Source: Candidatus Nanosyncoccus sp. (GTDB lineage: Bacteria; Patescibacteriota; Saccharimonadia; Saccharimonadales; Saccharimonadaceae). Taken from it: a DNA stretch of 64,000 nucleotides. The stretch spans positions 5,712-69,711 of the forward strand of contig JAZQCE010000010.1 of the NCBI GenBank assembly GCA_045546095.1, in the 5' to 3' direction. The notes beneath the pieces are model-generated. The model was not told where the DNA came from. It was given only the letters and a program-made list of their open reading frames with translations, and searched no databases. Shown here piece by piece: positions 5,261-11,526 of this stretch. Position 1 is the first letter of the stretch. Each line of letters starts with the position of its first letter. The translations under genes and the position numbers were made by a program.

Positions 5261-6241
5261 TTATTCTATGTTTTCTGGTTTTATATTTGAATTAATTAAC
5301 GTATTCAAATGCTCGCTATGCAACACATCTGCATTATAAATCTCCACTTTTGCGTTATATGTTTCAATTAATCCATTTATTTCATTATACAAAGCCTCTA
5401 AAGATTCTTGCCTAGCCACCAGTTCAGCCCTCTGTCCATTAAAATCTTCCTCTGTCTGGAAGCATCCTGCCACATCCGCGCAACTATTAAAACTCACAAT
5501 ATCAGCATTCAGCTGCCCCGCGAGCAGCTCATACTGAGACGTTTTTTGCTCCACCTCATTGCTAATGCTTTCAAGCTCTAGCGCCAAGGCATCCAGCTCA
5601 GCCTGCAACCGATTAAATACTCCAATATATTTATCGTAATAAGCCACCACTTTATCCTGCTCTCTAAAAATCTCCGCATAGTGTCGCTCCAAGGCCTCAG
5701 GCAAATCAGCTATTTCTGTACCCGCCCGCACGTACAACTCTTCCTTTTTCTCATTATCGTCATAAATATCCAACTCTTCACCCAACGCCGTCTGATGTTC
5801 CACCAATACCTCATTTAAAGCCGTCTCCAGCACCTGTCGCGCACCATCATCCATCCGCGCCCACGCTACATGCAACAGCTCATGCGCAGTAGTCAGCTCT
5901 CGTATCCCATCCAGCTCCTCTGAATCTATATTATACACATAGATGCTCTCCCCATCATAGCACCCCAGCACCGCAGTCTCGGTCACACCATCTCTACAAT
6001 TAGCATTAAACTCCTCCCTCTCGCTGAGTACCGGCTGCGATGCGTTAAACAAAAACACACCCTTATCCGTCAAGTTTAGTTCGCCCCTTATCCTCTCCAT
6101 CTCCGCCGACGGCTGATAGGTCACCCCCCGATAATAATCATAAATCCAATCCCTGTTCGCCGCCACCACGGCTCCACCCACAACCAGTACCGCAATTACT
6201 ACCCACCAAATCCATTTTTTACTCGATCTCCTTCTTTCCAT
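5261..6241 (-). CDS. Membrane-anchored protein with HELLH zincin-like motif and C-terminal coiled coil
   Basis: N-terminal TM, AHELLH motif, heptad-rich C-terminus; TATAAT 6 nt before ATG. Confidence 0.75.
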   Translation of the reverse strand: MERRRSSKKWIWWVVIAVLVVGGAVVAANRDWIYDYYRGVTYQPSAEMERIRGELNLTDKGVFLFNASQPVLSEREEFNANCRDGVTETAVLGCYDGESIYVYNIDSEELDGIRELTTAHELLHVAWARMDDGARQVLETALNEVLVEHQTALGEELDIYDDNEKKEELYVRAGTEIADLPEALERHYAEIFREQDKVVAYYDKYIGVFNRLQAELDALALELESISNEVEQKTSQYELLAGQLNADIVSFNSCADVAGCFQTEEDFNGQRAELVARQESLEALYNEINGLIETYNAKVEIYNADVLHSEHLNTLINSNIKPENIE

Positions 6242-6269
6242 ACCTCCATTATACCAAACTCCCCCATCA

Positions 6270-6320
6270 ATTCTAATTATCCAAATAGTTAAAAAGGCAT
6301 TTCATGAATTATATGAGTAA
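6270..6320 (+). pseudogene. Very short C-terminal remnant of a second PemK-like toxin
   Basis: QIVKKAFHELYE* (6282-6320) parallels YKEIRDAYLKLI* at 1294 and is followed by the same convergent RNA/promoter unit. Confidence 0.4.
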
Positions 6321-6373
6321 AAATGTACCCCCGACTTTTCAGAAGGGGGGATTGCGAGTAACCTCGAATATAT
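6316..6373 (-). ncRNA. Putative two-hairpin small RNA (copy 2)
   Basis: Follows a perfect TTGACA-N17-TATAAT; hairpins CGAG/CTCG (6355-6366) and CCCCC/GGGGG (6328-6350); compensatory change relative to copy 1. Confidence 0.55.
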
Positions 6374-6378
6374 TTCAT

Positions 6379-6407
6379 ATTATATCAAGTAGCAAGCATT
6401 TTGTCAA
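6379..6407 (-). promoter_or_regulatory. Consensus sigma70 promoter TTGACA-N17-TATAAT
   Basis: -35 at 6407-6402, -10 at 6384-6379. Confidence 0.8.
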
Positions 6408-6417
6408 TAGAAAGGAT

Positions 6418-6526
6418 AGGTTGGTTATGAATTTAAAGATAAGAATCTTGAATTTCTAAACCAACCTGTTTCCTTAATCCCGTTCACTATTAAAATCTAT
6501 CTCCCGGAACCAAAATAGAAAACATA
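6418..6526 (+). repeat. Cassette boundary repeat R1 (ychF 5' end copy plus element end; palindromic att-like site)
   Basis: AGGTTGGTTATGAATTTAAAGATaaGAATC matches the ychF start (10402-10431); the whole ~110 bp aligns with 8092-8200; inverted arms AGGTTGGTT / AACCAACCT at 6418-6467. Confidence 0.85.
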
Positions 6527-6566
6527 ACGATTTTTATTGCCAAAACAAATGATTTATAATGGTTTC

Positions 6567-6956
6567 ATGTCAAAACCAAGTTATTCAGTTATAGTCCCAA
6601 AAGAGCTTTACCCAAAACCATCAAATCGAGAAATGACTGCTGCCTATATTTTGATTGATTTCTTTAATTCCGATATAAAATTCGTAATCAGAAGCGATAA
6701 TAAAACGCCAGATTTTTTAATTGATAATAAATACTGGGAATTAAAATCTCCTACGGGTAATGGTAAATATAATTTACAGCATGCACTCAGAAATGCTGCT
6801 AAGCAATCAGAAAACGTTATTATTGATGCTAGATTTTCAAAAATTCATATCAATAAAATAAAAAATGAGCTGAATTACCAATTCAAGCACTCTAAAAATA
6901 TAAAGCATCTGCTTTTAATTGATAAGCAGAAAAATGTAGTTGAAATTTCTAGATGA
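6567..6956 (+). CDS. Small PD-(D/E)XK nuclease resembling the tRNA nuclease CdiA C-terminal domain; candidate toxin
   Basis: KTPDFLIDNKYWELKSPTG...LRNAAKQSENVIIDARF motif; ATG 6567 is 6 nt after TATAAT. Family assignment is from recall and needs an HMM check. Confidence 0.75.
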   Translation: MSKPSYSVIVPKELYPKPSNREMTAAYILIDFFNSDIKFVIRSDNKTPDFLIDNKYWELKSPTGNGKYNLQHALRNAAKQSENVIIDARFSKIHINKIKNELNYQFKHSKNIKHLLLIDKQKNVVEISR

Positions 6957-6968
6957 GTACGATATAAT
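6940..6968 (+). promoter_or_regulatory. sigma70 promoter TTGAAA-N17-TATAAT overlapping the nuclease stop codon
   Basis: -35 at 6940-6945 inside the last codons, -10 at 6963-6968. Confidence 0.75.
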
Positions 6969-6974
6969 AAAGAT

Positions 6975-7029
6975 ATCGAAAGTCCGTCAGGCAACGCTGG
7001 ATTGCGTAGGTTCGGGGCTTTCTTTTTTG
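6975..7029 (+). ncRNA. Putative small hairpin RNA (candidate antitoxin)
   Basis: Stem GAAAGTCCG (6978-6986) / CGGGGCTTTC (7013-7022), inner GCAA/TTGC stem, T-run terminator 7023-7028, own promoter. Confidence 0.55.
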
Positions 7030-7044
7030 TGCTATAATGCAACT

Positions 7045-8061
7045 ATGAAGCAGGCTGAAACCACCGATTATTTCAAAATTTTAAGTCCAGATTCTCCAGA
7101 TTGGCTCAAAGATTATATTAATACTAAAGAACTCCAAACCCAAAAATATATCAGTACTACCTGTGGCACACTTTATACCGATTTATTTAGTAGCGATACC
7201 TTTTATTCCAGCTTGGACCACTCCATTGCGGTTGCACTAATTGTCTGGCATTTTACTCACAATAAAAAACAAACTCTTGCTGGGTTGTTTCATGACATTT
7301 CAACTCCTGCCTTCAAACACTGCGTAGATTTTATGAACGGAGATTATCTAAAACAGGAATCTACAGAAGACTTAACTACCGATTTTATTAAAAAATCTCA
7401 GGATGTAATGGATTTACTTAGAGAAGATGATATCAAAATTGCAGAAATCGACAATTATCATATCTATCCAATCGCCGACAACGACACACCAAAATTATCG
7501 GCAGATAGGCTAGAGTATTCATTATCCAATGCGTTATTCACCTATAAAATGTTAGATTTAGAAGAAATTAGAGAGATATACAACGATATAGAAATCGAGC
7601 GAAACGAATCAGGAGAGTCAGAGCTAGGATTCAAAACTAAATCCATCGCTAGAAAGTTTGTCCAAGTTACTAGCAAAATGTCAGTTATCTACCGCGATGA
7701 TAGAACTAGATTCTCCATGCAATTTATTGCAGATATATTAAAAGGGCTAAAAGAAGGCGGTGAAATAACAATAGAAGAATTATACGATAAAAAAGAATCC
7801 GATGTTATTGAGATAATTGAAAAATCAAAATACAAAGATGCCTGGAACATCTGGAAAAAAGCTAAGAAAATCAATATTTCAAAAACTAAACCCGAGGATG
7901 CTTACTATATTCATCAAAAATCCAAAGTACGATATATCGACCCACTTTGTAACGGTGAACGTATGTCTAAAATTTGCAAAATAGCCAAAAATGCCATAGA
8001 CAAAAACCTTTCCTACGATATGAGTAACTATGTCTATCTAGATTTTAAACTCGAAAAATGA
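7045..8061 (+). CDS. HD-domain phosphohydrolase
   Basis: SSLDHSIAVAL...LAGLFHDISTPAFKHCVD...LSADRLEY motifs; start moved to ATG 7045 after TGCTATAAT. Confidence 0.9.
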   Translation: MKQAETTDYFKILSPDSPDWLKDYINTKELQTQKYISTTCGTLYTDLFSSDTFYSSLDHSIAVALIVWHFTHNKKQTLAGLFHDISTPAFKHCVDFMNGDYLKQESTEDLTTDFIKKSQDVMDLLREDDIKIAEIDNYHIYPIADNDTPKLSADRLEYSLSNALFTYKMLDLEEIREIYNDIEIERNESGESELGFKTKSIARKFVQVTSKMSVIYRDDRTRFSMQFIADILKGLKEGGEITIEELYDKKESDVIEIIEKSKYKDAWNIWKKAKKINISKTKPEDAYYIHQKSKVRYIDPLCNGERMSKICKIAKNAIDKNLSYDMSNYVYLDFKLEK

Positions 8062-8076
8062 TATAATCATATCTAT

Positions 8077-8200
8077 AATAACAGATATCACAGGTTGGTT
8101 ATGAATTTAAAGATCGGAATCTTGAATTTTTAAACCAACCCATTTCTTTTATCCCGTTTTCCACAAAAATCCGCCTGCCAAAGCCAAATTGGAAAAACAT
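8077..8200 (+). repeat. Cassette boundary repeat R2
   Basis: 8077-8121 nearly identical to 10388-10431 (1-nt indel); 8092-8200 aligns with R1; palindrome GGTTGGTT...AACCAACC at 8093-8140. Confidence 0.9.
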
Positions 8201-8211
8201 CCATATTAGAA

Positions 8212-8257
8212 CAAAAAGATAGGACTCACCTATTCCGAGGCAAGTCCTATCTTAATA
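8212..8257 (-). ncRNA. Putative small hairpin RNA downstream of the deleted nuclease
   Basis: Perfect 11-bp stem AAGATAGGACT (8216-8226) / AGTCCTATCTT (8243-8253), T-run on the minus strand, own promoter. Confidence 0.55.
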
Positions 8258-8262
8258 ATCTA

Positions 8263-8291
8263 ATTATACCAAAACTACTTCTTAAAATCAA
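8263..8291 (-). promoter_or_regulatory. sigma70 promoter TTGATT-N17-TATAAT overlapping the stop of the deleted nuclease
   Basis: -35 at 8291-8286, -10 at 8268-8263; same register relative to the stop codon as 6940-6968. Confidence 0.7.
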
Positions 8292-8403
8292 CTATTTTCT
8301 TAGTTTTTGTCACAATCTTTAACCTTTCGGTAAATAACAGAATCGTCTTATATTCGTGTTTCTCTAAAATAACACCATTTGGGATAATTTTACCTTTTTT
8401 CAT
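8275..8403 (-). pseudogene. Internally deleted paralog of the CdiA_C-like nuclease (42 aa)
   Basis: MKKGKIIPNGVILEKHEYKTILLFTE|RLKIVTKTKKIVDFKK*: the N- and C-terminal parts align by eye with the two ends of the 6567-6956 protein; the catalytic PD..ELK core is absent. Confidence 0.6.
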
Positions 8404-8590
8404 GCGAGGCATTATAACTAATCCACTCTACTTTTTCAACCCCCCTACCCACAATATGATCTAATGCAAACATCGAAACTTTTGCGGGACACAGTATGTA
8501 GCGAGCGCGAGGACCGAATATTTACATTTTTATTTTTTAATGTATAATAAGTATGAAAAGTATAACCAGTTATACTTTAAGGAAGCGTGC

Positions 8591-8791
8591 ATGAAAAATA
8601 AATTTGTAGGTATAGCCAAAGTTGGTGAAAAAGGACAAATTGTTATTCCAAAAGAAGCAAGAGAAATGTTTGATATTAAATCTGGTGATTCTATCATCGT
8701 TCTTTGTGATAAACAAAAAGGAATTGCTTTATTGAAAGCAGATGCAATTGAAGATTTATCGGATAAAGTATTTCCTAAGGAAGAAAGATAA
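8591..8791 (+). CDS. AbrB/MazE/SpoVT-family DNA-binding protein
   Basis: AKVGEKGQIVIPKEAREMFDIKSGD signature; start moved to ATG 8591. Confidence 0.9.
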   Translation: MKNKFVGIAKVGEKGQIVIPKEAREMFDIKSGDSIIVLCDKQKGIALLKADAIEDLSDKVFPKEER

Positions 8792-9513
8792 TGATAGCAA
8801 TAGAAACAAAAAATTTAACCAAAAAGTTTAAAGACAAAACAGCAGTAAATGGGGTCGATTTGAGCATCAAACAAGGAGAGCTATTTGCACTATTAGGAAC
8901 AAATGGCGCCGGTAAAACTACAATAATAAAAATTTTATCAGGATTGATATTACCAACATCTGGGAATATTAAAATTGAAAACATGGATATGAAAAAAGAT
9001 GTATTTAAGATAAAAGAAATCTTAAATGTATCACCACAAGAAACTGCTATTGCACCAAATTTAACAGTAAAAGAAAATTTAGAATTTATGGCAGGAGTTT
9101 ATCAAATAAAAGATAAAGAAAGAAAGATTAATGAACTTGTTAAGGAGTTTAAGCTTGATGAAGTTTTAAATAAAAGAGCTAAAACTTTGTCAGGCGGATG
9201 GCAAAGAAAAGTATCAATAGCAATTAGTTTAATAAATGATCCTAAAATACTATTTTTAGATGAACCAACATTAGGATTAGATGTTATTGCTAGAAAAAGG
9301 TTATGGAAAGTGATTGAAGGATTAAAAGGTAAAATTACTATTATTTTAACTACTCATTACATGGAAGAAGCAGAAAGCTTATCTGATAGAATTGGTATCA
9401 TGGCAAAGGGCAACATCGTTGAAGTTGGAACCGCTAAAGAATTAATTAAGAAGACTAAAGCAAAAAACTTTGAAGATGCATTTGTAGCAATCGCAACTGA
9501 AGGTGAGCTATAG
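8791..9513 (+). CDS. ABC transporter ATP-binding protein (ABC-2 type)
   Basis: Walker A GTNGAGKTT, LSGG signature, Walker B ILFLDEPT, TTHYMEE. Confidence 0.95.
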   Translation: MIAIETKNLTKKFKDKTAVNGVDLSIKQGELFALLGTNGAGKTTIIKILSGLILPTSGNIKIENMDMKKDVFKIKEILNVSPQETAIAPNLTVKENLEFMAGVYQIKDKERKINELVKEFKLDEVLNKRAKTLSGGWQRKVSIAISLINDPKILFLDEPTLGLDVIARKRLWKVIEGLKGKITIILTTHYMEEAESLSDRIGIMAKGNIVEVGTAKELIKKTKAKNFEDAFVAIATEGEL

Positions 9514-10244
9514 TGAGAATGTTAAATTTCGCCAAGAGAAACTTTAAAGAATTAATAAGAGATCCTTTAAGTTTAATATTTGAAATCGCTTTGCCATTAT
9601 TTTTATTATTTATATTTCAACAATTTGATATACCAGCAGAAAACTACAAATTAGAAAATTTTACTCCAGGAATTATAGTATTTGGTTTTTCATTTATAAC
9701 TTTATTTACTGCTACTTTAATTGCAAAAGACAGAACATCATCATTTTTAATTAGATTAGGTACATCGCCAATGAAGTCGAGCGATTATATTTTAGGATAC
9801 ATAATATCACTAATTCCAATCATAATAATCCAAAATGTATTATTCTTTTCACTAGCAGTTATTTTGGGACTAAACTTTACTATAAACATATTTTTTACAA
9901 TTATCGTATCTATAATAGTTTCAATATTATTTATTTCATTAGGTATATTAATTGGAAGTTTAGTCAGTGAAAAAGGAACTGGTGGGTTAGGAAGTGTAAT
10001 AGTTCAATTAGTATGTTTTACAAGCGGTATGTATTTTCCAAATGATAAAATTGGAGATGTATTTGGTTTTATATGCAGAATCTTACCATTTGAAAGTTGT
10101 TTAAATATAATAAAAAGTGTATTAAACAATAATCTAAATGCAATATCACTGGAAAATATAATAGTATTTTTAATATATACGATTGGAATTTTGATTTTAT
10201 CAATTATTGTATTCAAAAAGAGAATGATAAGTGACAATAAGTGA
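9513..10244 (+). CDS. ABC-2 type transporter permease
   Basis: Six hydrophobic segments, FTSGMYFP motif, translationally coupled to the ATPase. Confidence 0.9.
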   Translation: MRMLNFAKRNFKELIRDPLSLIFEIALPLFLLFIFQQFDIPAENYKLENFTPGIIVFGFSFITLFTATLIAKDRTSSFLIRLGTSPMKSSDYILGYIISLIPIIIIQNVLFFSLAVILGLNFTINIFFTIIVSIIVSILFISLGILIGSLVSEKGTGGLGSVIVQLVCFTSGMYFPNDKIGDVFGFICRILPFESCLNIIKSVLNNNLNAISLENIIVFLIYTIGILILSIIVFKKRMISDNK

Positions 10245-10387
10245 TTGGAAAGTTTTTCAAAGTATTCTCGAATAATCAAACCAACTCCATCATAACAAAC
10301 TGAACAAATACCCCACCCGCAGTTTGCCTTGCACAAACTTTATCATATCTAATGTTATACACCAAAATATGCTATAATTATACCAGC

Positions 10388-10431
10388 AATAACAGATATA
10401 CAGGTTGGTTATGAATTTAAAGATCGGAATC
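10388..10431 (+). repeat. Cassette boundary repeat R3 (the functional ychF start)
   Basis: AATAACAGATATACAGGTTGGTTATGAATTTAAAGATCGGAATC; diverges from R1/R2 right after GAATC. Confidence 0.9.
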
Positions 10432-11526
10432 GTTGGGTTGCCCAATGTCGGCAAATCCACATTGTTTAATGCTCTCACAAACGCTGGCGCCCTCGCTGCC
10501 AACTATCCTTTTGCTACCATCGAGCCAAACGTCGGCATTGTCCCGGTACCAGATGAGCGGCTAGACATCCTCGCCAAAATGTACGAGACCGACAAAATCG
10601 TCCCAGCTACTGTCGAGTTCGTCGACATTGCTGGCCTCGTCGCAGGCGCCTCAAAAGGCGAGGGGCTCGGCAATAAATTCCTTGCCCACATCCGTGAATG
10701 CCAAGCTATCTGCCATGTGGTCCGCGCCTTCAAAAACGACGACATCCTCCGTGCCGACCAAAAACTCGTCGATGATATTGTAGCGCAAGCCAAGGACGAC
10801 ATAGACATCATTAACTTAGAGCTACAGCTCGCCGACGAAGAAACCAAAGCCAAAATCGCCGCCAAACGCAAAAAAGACCCTGGGGACGAATTCATCCCCT
10901 ACCTCACCGACAAGCCCGTCATCTATATGTTCAATGTAGACGAAAAAGGCCTCACCGACAATGACCTACAACAAAAACTAACAGAAGTCGCAAGAAATGC
11001 GCAGTCGAGGGACATAAAGGCAATACTTGCCGAAGGCAATTTTGCCGCCGAAGGGGCGAAGCGAGGTGATAAAATTTCTAATTTATCACCTCGCGAAGCT
11101 CCCGAGACGTGCATTTCTTGCGACTCAAACTGTATTTTTGTTGATGCCAAACTCGAAGAGGAGATGTCCGGCATGGACCGCAATGAGCGCAAAGAGTTCT
11201 TGGAGAGTTACGGGGTAAAAGAAGATGCACTCGGCGAATTAATCAAGGCCGCCTATGACGTCCTCGGTCTCCAATCCTTCCTCACCGCCGGCAAGAAAGA
11301 ATGCCGCGCCTGGACCATCAAAAAAGGCTCTACAGCACCCCAAGCCGCCGGTACTATCCATACCGATTTTGAACGCGGTTTCATCGCTGCAAATGTCTGT
11401 AAATACGCCGACTTAGCAAGACTCGGCTCCGAGAAAGCCGTCCGCGAGGCCGGCCTCCTCCGCACCGAGGGCAAGACTTACGTCATGCAAGACGGCGACG
11501 TTGTCGAATTCCGTTTCAACGTATAA
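10411..11526 (+). CDS. ychF: Redox-regulated ATPase YchF (with in-frame hairpin insertion)
   Basis: GIVGLPNVGKST, NYPFATIEPN, FVDIAGLV, TGS domain IHTDFERGFI, YVMQDGD. Confidence 0.97.
   Translation: MNLKIGIVGLPNVGKSTLFNALTNAGALAANYPFATIEPNVGIVPVPDERLDILAKMYETDKIVPATVEFVDIAGLVAGASKGEGLGNKFLAHIRECQAICHVVRAFKNDDILRADQKLVDDIVAQAKDDIDIINLELQLADEETKAKIAAKRKKDPGDEFIPYLTDKPVIYMFNVDEKGLTDNDLQQKLTEVARNAQSRDIKAILAEGNFAAEGAKRGDKISNLSPREAPETCISCDSNCIFVDAKLEEEMSGMDRNERKEFLESYGVKEDALGELIKAAYDVLGLQSFLTAGKKECRAWTIKKGSTAPQAAGTIHTDFERGFIAANVCKYADLARLGSEKAVREAGLLRTEGKTYVMQDGDVVEFRFNV
10986..11125. repeat. Hairpin element family C, copy in ychF
   Basis: Arms AGTCGCAAGAAATGC / GCATTTCTTGCGACT; core TCGAGGGACATAAAGGCAA...GCCGAAGGGGCGAAGC shared with 36082 and 40266. 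Confidence 0.85.

Follow-up and report, generated by a model that had tools for sequence, protein, structure and literature searches.

Why should the start of one gene occur three times in succession, twice as one half of an imperfect palindrome? The question is raised by a 64,000-nt stretch of DNA from Candidatus Nanosyncoccus sp. (GenBank assembly GCA_045546095.1, contig JAZQCE010000010.1, positions 5,712 to 69,711), referred to here as the window, in which copies of the ychF translation start bound two small gene cassettes that stand directly in front of ychF itself. We conclude that the palindrome is very probably an attP-type site of the form P-GG-P', belonging to a lineage of large serine recombinases (LSRs) that integrates elements of 7-12 kb at codons 5-6 of ychF in the Saccharimonadaceae. 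R1 and R2, the two palindromes of the window, would be the seams of two stacked cassettes that lack a recombinase and are non-autonomous relatives of the LSR elements.

Palindromes at the ychF start

The 22-nt left arm, GGTTGGTTATGAATTTAAAGAT, has exactly three copies (at 6419, 8093, and 10403), the same set in the window and in the whole genome (832 kb in 27 contigs, 98% complete), and none in shuffled sequence. At R1 and R2, the sequence past a 4-nt spacer, ATCTTGAATTTYTAAACCAACC, is an inverted imperfect copy of the first arm, symmetric at 18 of 22 positions. At R3, the third copy, it runs on into ychF without a second arm. R3 is the real start of the gene, which extends from ATG 10411 to 11526 and matches Pfam YchF-GTPase_C and MMR_HSR1. 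The sequence upstream of R2 and R3 is alike (TATAAT..ATAACAGATAT(C)ACA), and that upstream of R1 is different. Based on the left-arm copies, the right arms, and this upstream likeness, the stretches between the three copies are considered cassettes of 1674 and 2310 bp. The features of the array are as follows.

6419..6440, + strand: left arm (P arm) of R1, GGTTGGTTATGAATTTAAAGAT; copies the ychF leader, an ATG at 6427, and codons 1-5
6441..6444, + strand: spacer of R1, AAGA; central dinucleotide AG instead of the usual GG
6445..6466, + strand: right arm (P' arm) of R1 and left end of cassette 1, ATCTTGAATTTCTAAACCAACC; inverted imperfect copy of the P arm
6444..6518, + strand: relic of a recombinase C-terminal tail at R1, NLEFLNQPVSLIPFTIKIYLPEPK and stop, in the frame of the LSR open reading frame (ORF) across attP
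6444..8117, + strand: cassette 1, 1674 bp, centre to centre
8051-8079: promoter-like right end of cassette 1
8093..8114, + strand: left arm (P arm) of R2 and right end of cassette 1; copy of the ychF promoter region before the arm (TATAAT..ATAACAGATATCACA)
8115..8118, + strand: spacer of R2, CGGA; GG at 8116-8117 is the putative crossover dinucleotide
8119..8140, + strand: right arm (P' arm) of R2 and left end of cassette 2
8118..8222, + strand: recombinase tail relic at R2, NLEFLNQPISFIPFSTKIRLPKPNWKNIHIRTKR and stop
8118..10427, + strand: cassette 2, 2310 bp, with a promoter copy plus P arm at its right end
10403..10431, + strand: R3 (attR type, P-B'); P arm, CGGA, and ATC, continuing as ychF
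10411..11526, + strand: ychF, the target gene; working ATG 10411 supplied by cassette 2

Three kinds of junction are distinguished below: P-P' is the full palindrome; P-B' is a left arm followed by ychF; and B-P' is a native-type ychF promoter and start (TATAATAACAGAT-ATG..., without GGTTGGTT) followed by a right arm.

A first-pass annotation of the window, made from its letters alone, had described an imperfect palindrome of about 50 bp at R1 and a second fold with loop CGGA at 8093-8140. Both are present. R1 has 22-nt arms around AAGA and, with flanking A/T, spans 6418-6467; an inverted-repeat search of the window agrees (arms of 23 nt, complementarity 83%, gap 4 nt), and the second fold is R2. 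Single-strand folding compared with shuffles gives z-scores of -5.9 for R1, -3.4 for R2, and +0.2 for the ychF copy. Rfam and tRNA scans returned no match at the palindrome site, and a terminator was rejected because the terminator scan did not flag it.

R1 itself is probably a dead attachment site: its centre (6442-6443) is AG, one of five exceptions to GG in 98 oriented junctions, with AAGA seen once, and thus breaks the central-dinucleotide rule. Its right arm gives the orphan start an in-frame TAA (MNLKIRILNF, then stop). Nor is R1 the original attL, since its P-type left arm carries non-cassette upstream sequence. The stretch at 6242-6418, between R1 and the neighbouring gene (5261-6241), resembles the stump of an older cassette. 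On the contig that holds the window (C10), the + strand GC skew is strongly negative (mean -0.22), which makes it probable that transcription of ychF opposes replication; a skew switch is absent from every contig of the assembly.

Serine recombinase elements at the same position

The identity of the palindrome is best seen where a recombinase gene lies beside it. In genome G251 (L055/L211), a lone element of 7.1 kb comes after a B-P' junction. It encodes a C5 methylase, a LlaMI-type nuclease, an AAA_25 protein, and, as its last gene, an LSR of 567 aa in which Resolvase, Recombinase, and Zn_ribbon_recom domains are recognised. The 3' end of the LSR gene overlaps the P arm and the ychF start. 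Related LSR elements of 7-12 kb carry these two arms at an identical place in ychF, again with the LSR gene at the end, in agreement with the first-pass suggestion of an attP-like LSR site. Public homologues of the enzyme (P0001, P0002, P0004, P0005, P0009, P0017, and P0033; 45-96% identity) all lie at the ychF start in different hosts, and a further one, P0014, adjoins no more than a 5' stub of ychF. Among 401 family genomes sampled without selection, 13 genomes of 9 genera have the LSR, and its ORF runs into ychF in 12 of the 13.

The far junction (attL) was found for ten LSR elements and consists of the native ychF start, NGG, and a P' arm. Joining the two ends of such an element in silico restores its attP, which for L214 reads ACA GGTTGGTTTTGAACTTAAAGAT AGGA ATCTTGAAATTTTAAACCAACA and is nearly identical to R2, the same imperfect palindrome of about 50 bp. 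This reconstruction had been suggested at the outset, along with the idea that the complete site is formed by the joined ends of a circular element, and the rebuilt attP supports that idea.

The left ends of LSR elements extend the LSR ORF by about 55 codons across attP (NLE(I/F)LNQHTTTYIPFS.K.KLPKPDHGKRG.SD.YINK...), and relics of this tail persist in the LSR frame in the window, both at R2 (NLEFLNQPISFIPFSTKIRLPKP..., NLEFLNQPISFIPFSTKIRLPKPNWKN...) and at R1 (NLEFLNQPVSLIPFTIKIYLPEP, NLEFLNQPVSLIPFTIKIYLPEPK and stop). In addition, the left ends of the window's cassettes align with LSR elements at the DNA level for about 70 nt past the arm. The relics and the alignment together indicate that the cassettes descend from, or were built on, LSR-element ends. 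In another genus, L241 (~6382, 8297) and L242 (~4272, 6786) each have two P' arms upstream of a single LSR element, as though a small unit without a recombinase had been stacked beside an autonomous one.

Towards its 3' end, the LSR gene itself contains a second full palindrome of this design, but with centre AGCA or AGCG, some 90 nt before the real P arm (L214:11599-11646, L219:2769-2816, and in L215); it may be a former junction, a decoy, or a site bound for regulation. In one lineage, an HTH_17 (excisionase-type) gene directly precedes the ychF-type LSR (L224:8819-9004) and is a candidate directionality factor. LSRs of other subfamilies are common in array-bearing genomes (0.7-0.9 Mb), being present in 41 of 55, with up to five each and some in tandem pairs. 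They were rejected as the enzyme of the arrays because they are not near the arrays and have no arm-like motifs.

Site anatomy and probable crossover position

In the window's clade, the right arm consists of a conserved ATCTT by the centre and TAAACCAACC at bp 15-24, with a variable stretch between. In the structure of LI integrase bound to attP, the zinc-ribbon motif occupies bp 16-24 (PMC3783163), and the position of the outer block in the ychF arm matches it. The two arms covary in this region. Across 11 elements, the outer 9 bp of an element's own two arms agree at 87 of 99 positions versus 74.5 when shuffled, and none of 20000 shuffles reaches 87, although the set includes close relatives and the count overstates independence. 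Agreement is strongest at position 2 (11/11) and position 7 (10/11). Covarying outer blocks include GGTTGGTT with AACCAACC, GGTTGTGTT with AACACAAC, GATTGGGTT with AACCCAAT, GATTGGTTT with AAACCAATC, and TGTTGG with CCAACA. We infer that the LSR binds and cuts these arm sequences.

Three observations from sequence point to the central GG, a dinucleotide present in 93 of 98 oriented junctions, as the crossover. In four LSR elements, the base at position 23 is not the same in attL and attR and goes with the left half, and that at position 26 goes with the right. One element found in two hosts (LSRs 91-96% identical) maintains identity through ...CAGATAGG and ...TTACAGATAGG and is host-specific from the next base. 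Across junctions, positions -3, -1, 9, and 14 are linked together (leftwards), and position 26 varies with the right-hand class. Exchange would therefore take place within the palindrome, at a GG that is non-palindromic as serine integrases require, and not at some other place, which the first-pass annotation had named as an outcome that would speak against an attachment site.

Two further first-pass suggestions fared less well. The alternative of an attC-like site, active as folded single-stranded DNA, is not borne out: the arms are conserved in sequence, four mismatches are fixed, and there are 0 compensatory double changes within the arms in 107 junctions. Integron attC identity was rejected on the same grounds, and because no IntI-type recombinase lies next to the array. 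It had also been argued that the right arm of R1 pairs better with the left side of R2 than with its own, as the two ends of one cassette should. The pairing is real in the window (11/11, TGT with ACA), but it is no general rule. Over 120 complete cassettes, flank pairing scores 1.54 of 3 for a cassette's own ends, 1.62 for the same junction, and 1.60 when shuffled; own flanks thus pair no better than chance, and the match in the window is a coincidence.

Junctions and arrays in other genomes

An exact 24-nt junction pattern was used as the query against genomes, metagenome contigs, and viral contigs. It occurs at 81 loci in 73 species-level genomes, all of them Candidatus Saccharibacteria of ruminant guts (including Ca. 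Nanosyncoccus alces), and in 60 metagenome contigs; no junction was found with it in viral contigs. The right-arm motif is present in four of five other sampled genomes of the window's genus, and one genome of another genus has five tandem copies. Conservation of the palindrome at cassette ends of other genomes, on which the first-pass proposal had been made to depend, is thus far beyond chance. The counts are lower bounds, since variant junctions exist. In some, GAATTGGGAGT-AGGA replaces GAATTTAAAGAT-NGGA (positions include L213 ~6140, 8395, and 9163, and L053 ~3269), and in the L040 junction family (2758/4051/4315) the arms are offset by 25 nt, not 26.

From about 75 genomes and the 60 metagenome contigs, we collected 259 distinct junctions: 157 P-P', 74 P-B', and 22 B-P'. 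Their order is strict, with P-B' last in every array and B-P' leftmost in 21 of 22 cases. An arrangement of attL ... attP-like ... attR is what repeated site-specific insertion into the start of ychF would be expected to give. True empty ychF sites (TATAAT, 7 nt, then ATGAGTTTA.AGATTGG) were found only in other genera; four apparent empty "B-B" sites in the window's clade were rejected as degenerate P arms.

The first-pass annotation also held that the fold, as RNA, might bury the orphan ychF start codon. What the junctions themselves show is that, in 97 of 107, the right arm brings an in-frame TAA 10 codons on. Variation in the left arm is mostly synonymous with respect to ychF (AAT/AAC, TTA/TTG, AAG/AAA, and ATC/ATA/ATT, never ATG), which suggests that each left-arm copy once served as a working ychF start. 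In several genomes (L016:10300, L018:7360, L017:7230, L091, and others), the ychF start codon is TTG or ATT and comes from the P arm of the last cassette.

Cassettes and their exchange

Complete distinct cassettes (n = 86) range from 264 to 2337 bp, and some elsewhere reach 5-6 kb. Arrays contain from one to five or more junctions, always with an intact ychF at the end. The cassettes encode 124 ORFs on both strands, grouped in 78 protein clusters, of which a CdiA_C-like small protein is the commonest; other products include NUDIX, HTH, GNAT, hydrolase, SDR, MFS, ABC, Fic, and amylase proteins. No recombinase domain occurs in the 78 clusters or in the gap regions upstream of arrays. Neither cassette of the window encodes a recombinase gene, and their content is as follows.

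6567-6956: cassette 1, CdiA_C-like small protein
7045-8061: cassette 1, 338-aa protein
8591-8791: cassette 2, AbrB/MazE-type protein
8791-9513: cassette 2, ABC ATPase
9513-10244: cassette 2, ABC-2 permease

The array position of related cassettes varies from genome to genome. Cassette bodies show 91-99% identity where the adjacent ychF genes are only 71-81% identical (for example, 99% beside 77%). Because cassette identity so far exceeds that of the neighbouring gene, the sequence comparisons indicate that cassettes move between species. The recombinase-less cassettes seem, by analogy, to resemble the composite islands of staphylococcal cassette chromosomes (SCC). Separately, a 6.1-kb last cassette (L212:2309-8385, genome G211) carries two class II aminoacyl-tRNA-synthetase-like genes, one of them ProRS-like, and a radical SAM gene.

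Proposed mechanism and alternative explanations

We propose that the arms act as half-sites, each for a single recombinase subunit and each made up of an inner block by the centre and an outer block (GGTTGGTT / AACCAACC) 16-24 bp out, and that strands would be exchanged at the central GG, with which the Gly6 codon begins. The P arm of the incoming element would bring a replacement leader, start codon, and five codons, and ychF would stay intact because all three are supplied. As attP lies within the recombinase gene, integration would move the last ~55 codons to the far end of the element and so detach the tail. Cassettes would be stacked successively at the ychF-proximal site, and we infer that they were, or can be, mobilised in trans. 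The array in the window's genome is probably frozen, given the missing serine recombinase and the mutated centre of R1, and may now change only by homologous recombination.

Several points weigh against this account. The window's genome has no Resolvase-domain gene; no close homologue of the ychF-type LSR occurs in 58 other array-bearing genomes, and none of the ~20 genomes of the window's genus within the family sample has a ychF-type LSR, so arrays and LSR elements are hardly ever found together. No circular form was seen, either in viral contigs or as a circular contig in metagenomes, and the only LSR relative in viral contigs is 27% identical. Classical serine integrases recombine attP only with attB, and stacking would require P-B' to keep acting as attB. 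Moreover, a serine-integrase attB is ~10 bp shorter than attP, with its outer motif ~5 bp further inward. By eye, only CCAA of the Pro-Asn codons in the ychF half-site resembles the outer block, at an offset of 3-4 bp; no zinc-ribbon motif shifted by 5 bp was found there, and the native left half has no clear motif. At their right ends, cassettes have a ychF promoter copy, its P arm completed by a 13-nt insert, in place of the LSR 3' end, and cassettes are therefore not simple internal deletions of LSR elements. Finally, breakpoints of recent exchange fall in the promoter/P module of ~75 bp or inside cassettes, from which it follows that homologous recombination now does much of the reshuffling. 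For example, L033 and L100 are 99.9% identical over 7267 nt, with 6 of 8 mismatches within the last 75 nt before divergence, and the 99% tract common to L035 and L093 begins and ends within a cassette.

These breakpoints also speak for a rival view in which no site-specific enzyme is at work today, cassettes would be swapped instead by natural transformation and RecA through junctions of ~100 bp, and the right arm would be kept since its RNA pairing with the left arm would silence the orphan ychF start and promoter read-through. Both the mismatch clustering and the tract with two ends inside a cassette fit such exchange, as does the lack of an LSR in most array genomes; the predicted stability of the hairpin and the in-frame stop that the right arm provides in 97/107 junctions fit its regulatory part. 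As a full explanation we nevertheless find it improbable. It does not explain why the same arms occur in the same phase on LSR elements, why the arms covary with LSR lineage, or why element sequence ends exactly at GG, and the pairing is not maintained by compensatory change. Homology exchange is best seen as the present-day mode of reshuffling on top of a site-specific origin.

Other recombinases might be held responsible for the arrays. A tyrosine recombinase of ~280 aa, encoded 2-10 kb upstream of many arrays (for example, L049:156-998, L081:135-977, L183:2499-3347, and L018:10269-11210), could use the palindromes as core sites in an integron-like system. Its gene ends a conserved cluster, nb326-(w260)-GmrSD_C-w2925-w2429, beside the array in 11 loci, and it is at the array's side in 8 of the 12 genomes that have the family, which is scarce elsewhere (7/201 genomes). 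We consider this very improbable, as the enzyme occurs in only ~20-25% of array genomes and is missing from the largest arrays and from the window's genome, including the region left of window position 2429; homologues in other genera are not near ychF, and no arm-like motif adjoins the gene. Polymorphic position 23 would fall in any overlap region of 6-8 bp, conservation reaches ±24 bp, past the usual tyrosine-recombinase core, and the LSR link is direct and physical. This recombinase also has copies on small contigs in G220, which hints at a mobile form. Of the three tyrosine recombinases in the window's genome, one of 301 aa (C5:89926-90750) was rejected as the array enzyme because its clade is not array-linked; it shares 97% identity with a copy that another species (G248) has on a 9.9-kb contig, suggesting recent transfer. 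An Xer/dif-type hitch-hiker, as in integrative mobile elements exploiting Xer (IMEX) or pdif modules, would have the host's single Xer recombinase act on the palindrome, and an Xer-like gene is indeed the sole recombinase present in nearly all array genomes. This strikes us as the least credible of all, because the palindrome has no 11-6-11 dif layout and no likeness to dif consensus sequences; the host's own dif was not located in the genome, whose only dif-like match (contig C22) lies inside an ORF without a skew switch.

An extension of the LSR reading, which we offer tentatively and regard as doubtful, is that ruminant Saccharibacteria have, at the 5' end of ychF, a functioning platform for cassette capture that depends on a serine integrase and corresponds to the integron. 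A large common pool of tiny cassettes with promoters of their own (toxins, transporters, NUDIX, GNAT, and others) would be moved in trans by rare LSR "driver" elements; the ychF-proximal P-B' would be reused as attB, contrary to the classical attP-attB rule; and the tail clipped from the integrase on integration might act as a switch between the free and integrated states.

Comparison with known systems

No earlier published description of a ychF cassette or attachment-site system was found in the literature searched. Serine-integrase att sites are themselves known; what appears to be new is such a site with an SCC-like pile-up of recombinase-less cassettes in a bacterium of the candidate phyla radiation (CPR). 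It would offer a natural landing site at base resolution, together with candidate integrases, for Saccharibacteria, a CPR group with few genetic tools, and the attP and attB sequences and the enzyme family are available as a possible genetic tool. It also indicates that genomes of ~0.8 Mb are still trading accessory genes across species, and the stacking at a hybrid site, together with the placement of attP within the integrase gene, calls into question the textbook view of strict attP x attB directionality.

The closest counterparts of the site itself are the att sites of serine integrases (A118/LI, Bxb1, and phiC31), which likewise feature an imperfect inverted repeat of ~50 bp with a non-palindromic central dinucleotide, bipartite half-sites with an outer block at bp 16-24, an integrase gene adjoining attP, and a centre that alone must match between partners (Rutherford et al. 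2013, PMC3783163). The ychF system differs in that attP lies within the integrase ORF, so that integration removes ~55 C-terminal codons, and in that the P arm also provides the target gene with its leader, start codon, and first codons. Furthermore, many recombinase-less units share the site, and the hybrid ychF-proximal site is apparently reused.

In staphylococci, the LSRs of SCC and SCCmec insert at the end of a conserved housekeeping gene, rlmH (orfX), which is left intact, and ccr-less partners with the same ends, such as pseudo-SCC and the arginine catabolic mobile element (ACME), pile up in tandem beside it. The ychF arrays are similar, as recombinase-less units with the same ends (86 cassettes, none with a recombinase) are stacked beside an intact housekeeping gene. 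They differ in their ultra-small CPR host, their small units (0.26-2.3 kb, up to 6 kb), and a target at the 5' end of the gene, because of which each unit must bring a promoter and start codon.

Integron attC arrays, including clusters of attC sites lacking integron-associated integrases (CALIN), also consist of small, diverse, exchangeable cassettes that are bounded by imperfect palindromes at one fixed site, often with no recombinase. The ychF system is set apart by a serine rather than a tyrosine recombinase, arms conserved in sequence and not in fold alone, cassettes with their own promoters in both orientations, and a palindrome that is split between neighbours. Similarly, the cis-mobilizable elements (CIMEs) of Streptococcus thermophilus are integrase-less, att-flanked units that adjoin a related autonomous element in tandem and are dependent on it. 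The ychF cassettes share with them the absence of an integrase between att sites, whereas CIMEs rely on tyrosine integrases, occupy the 3' end of fda, and form short tandems in place of the arrays of five or more found here.
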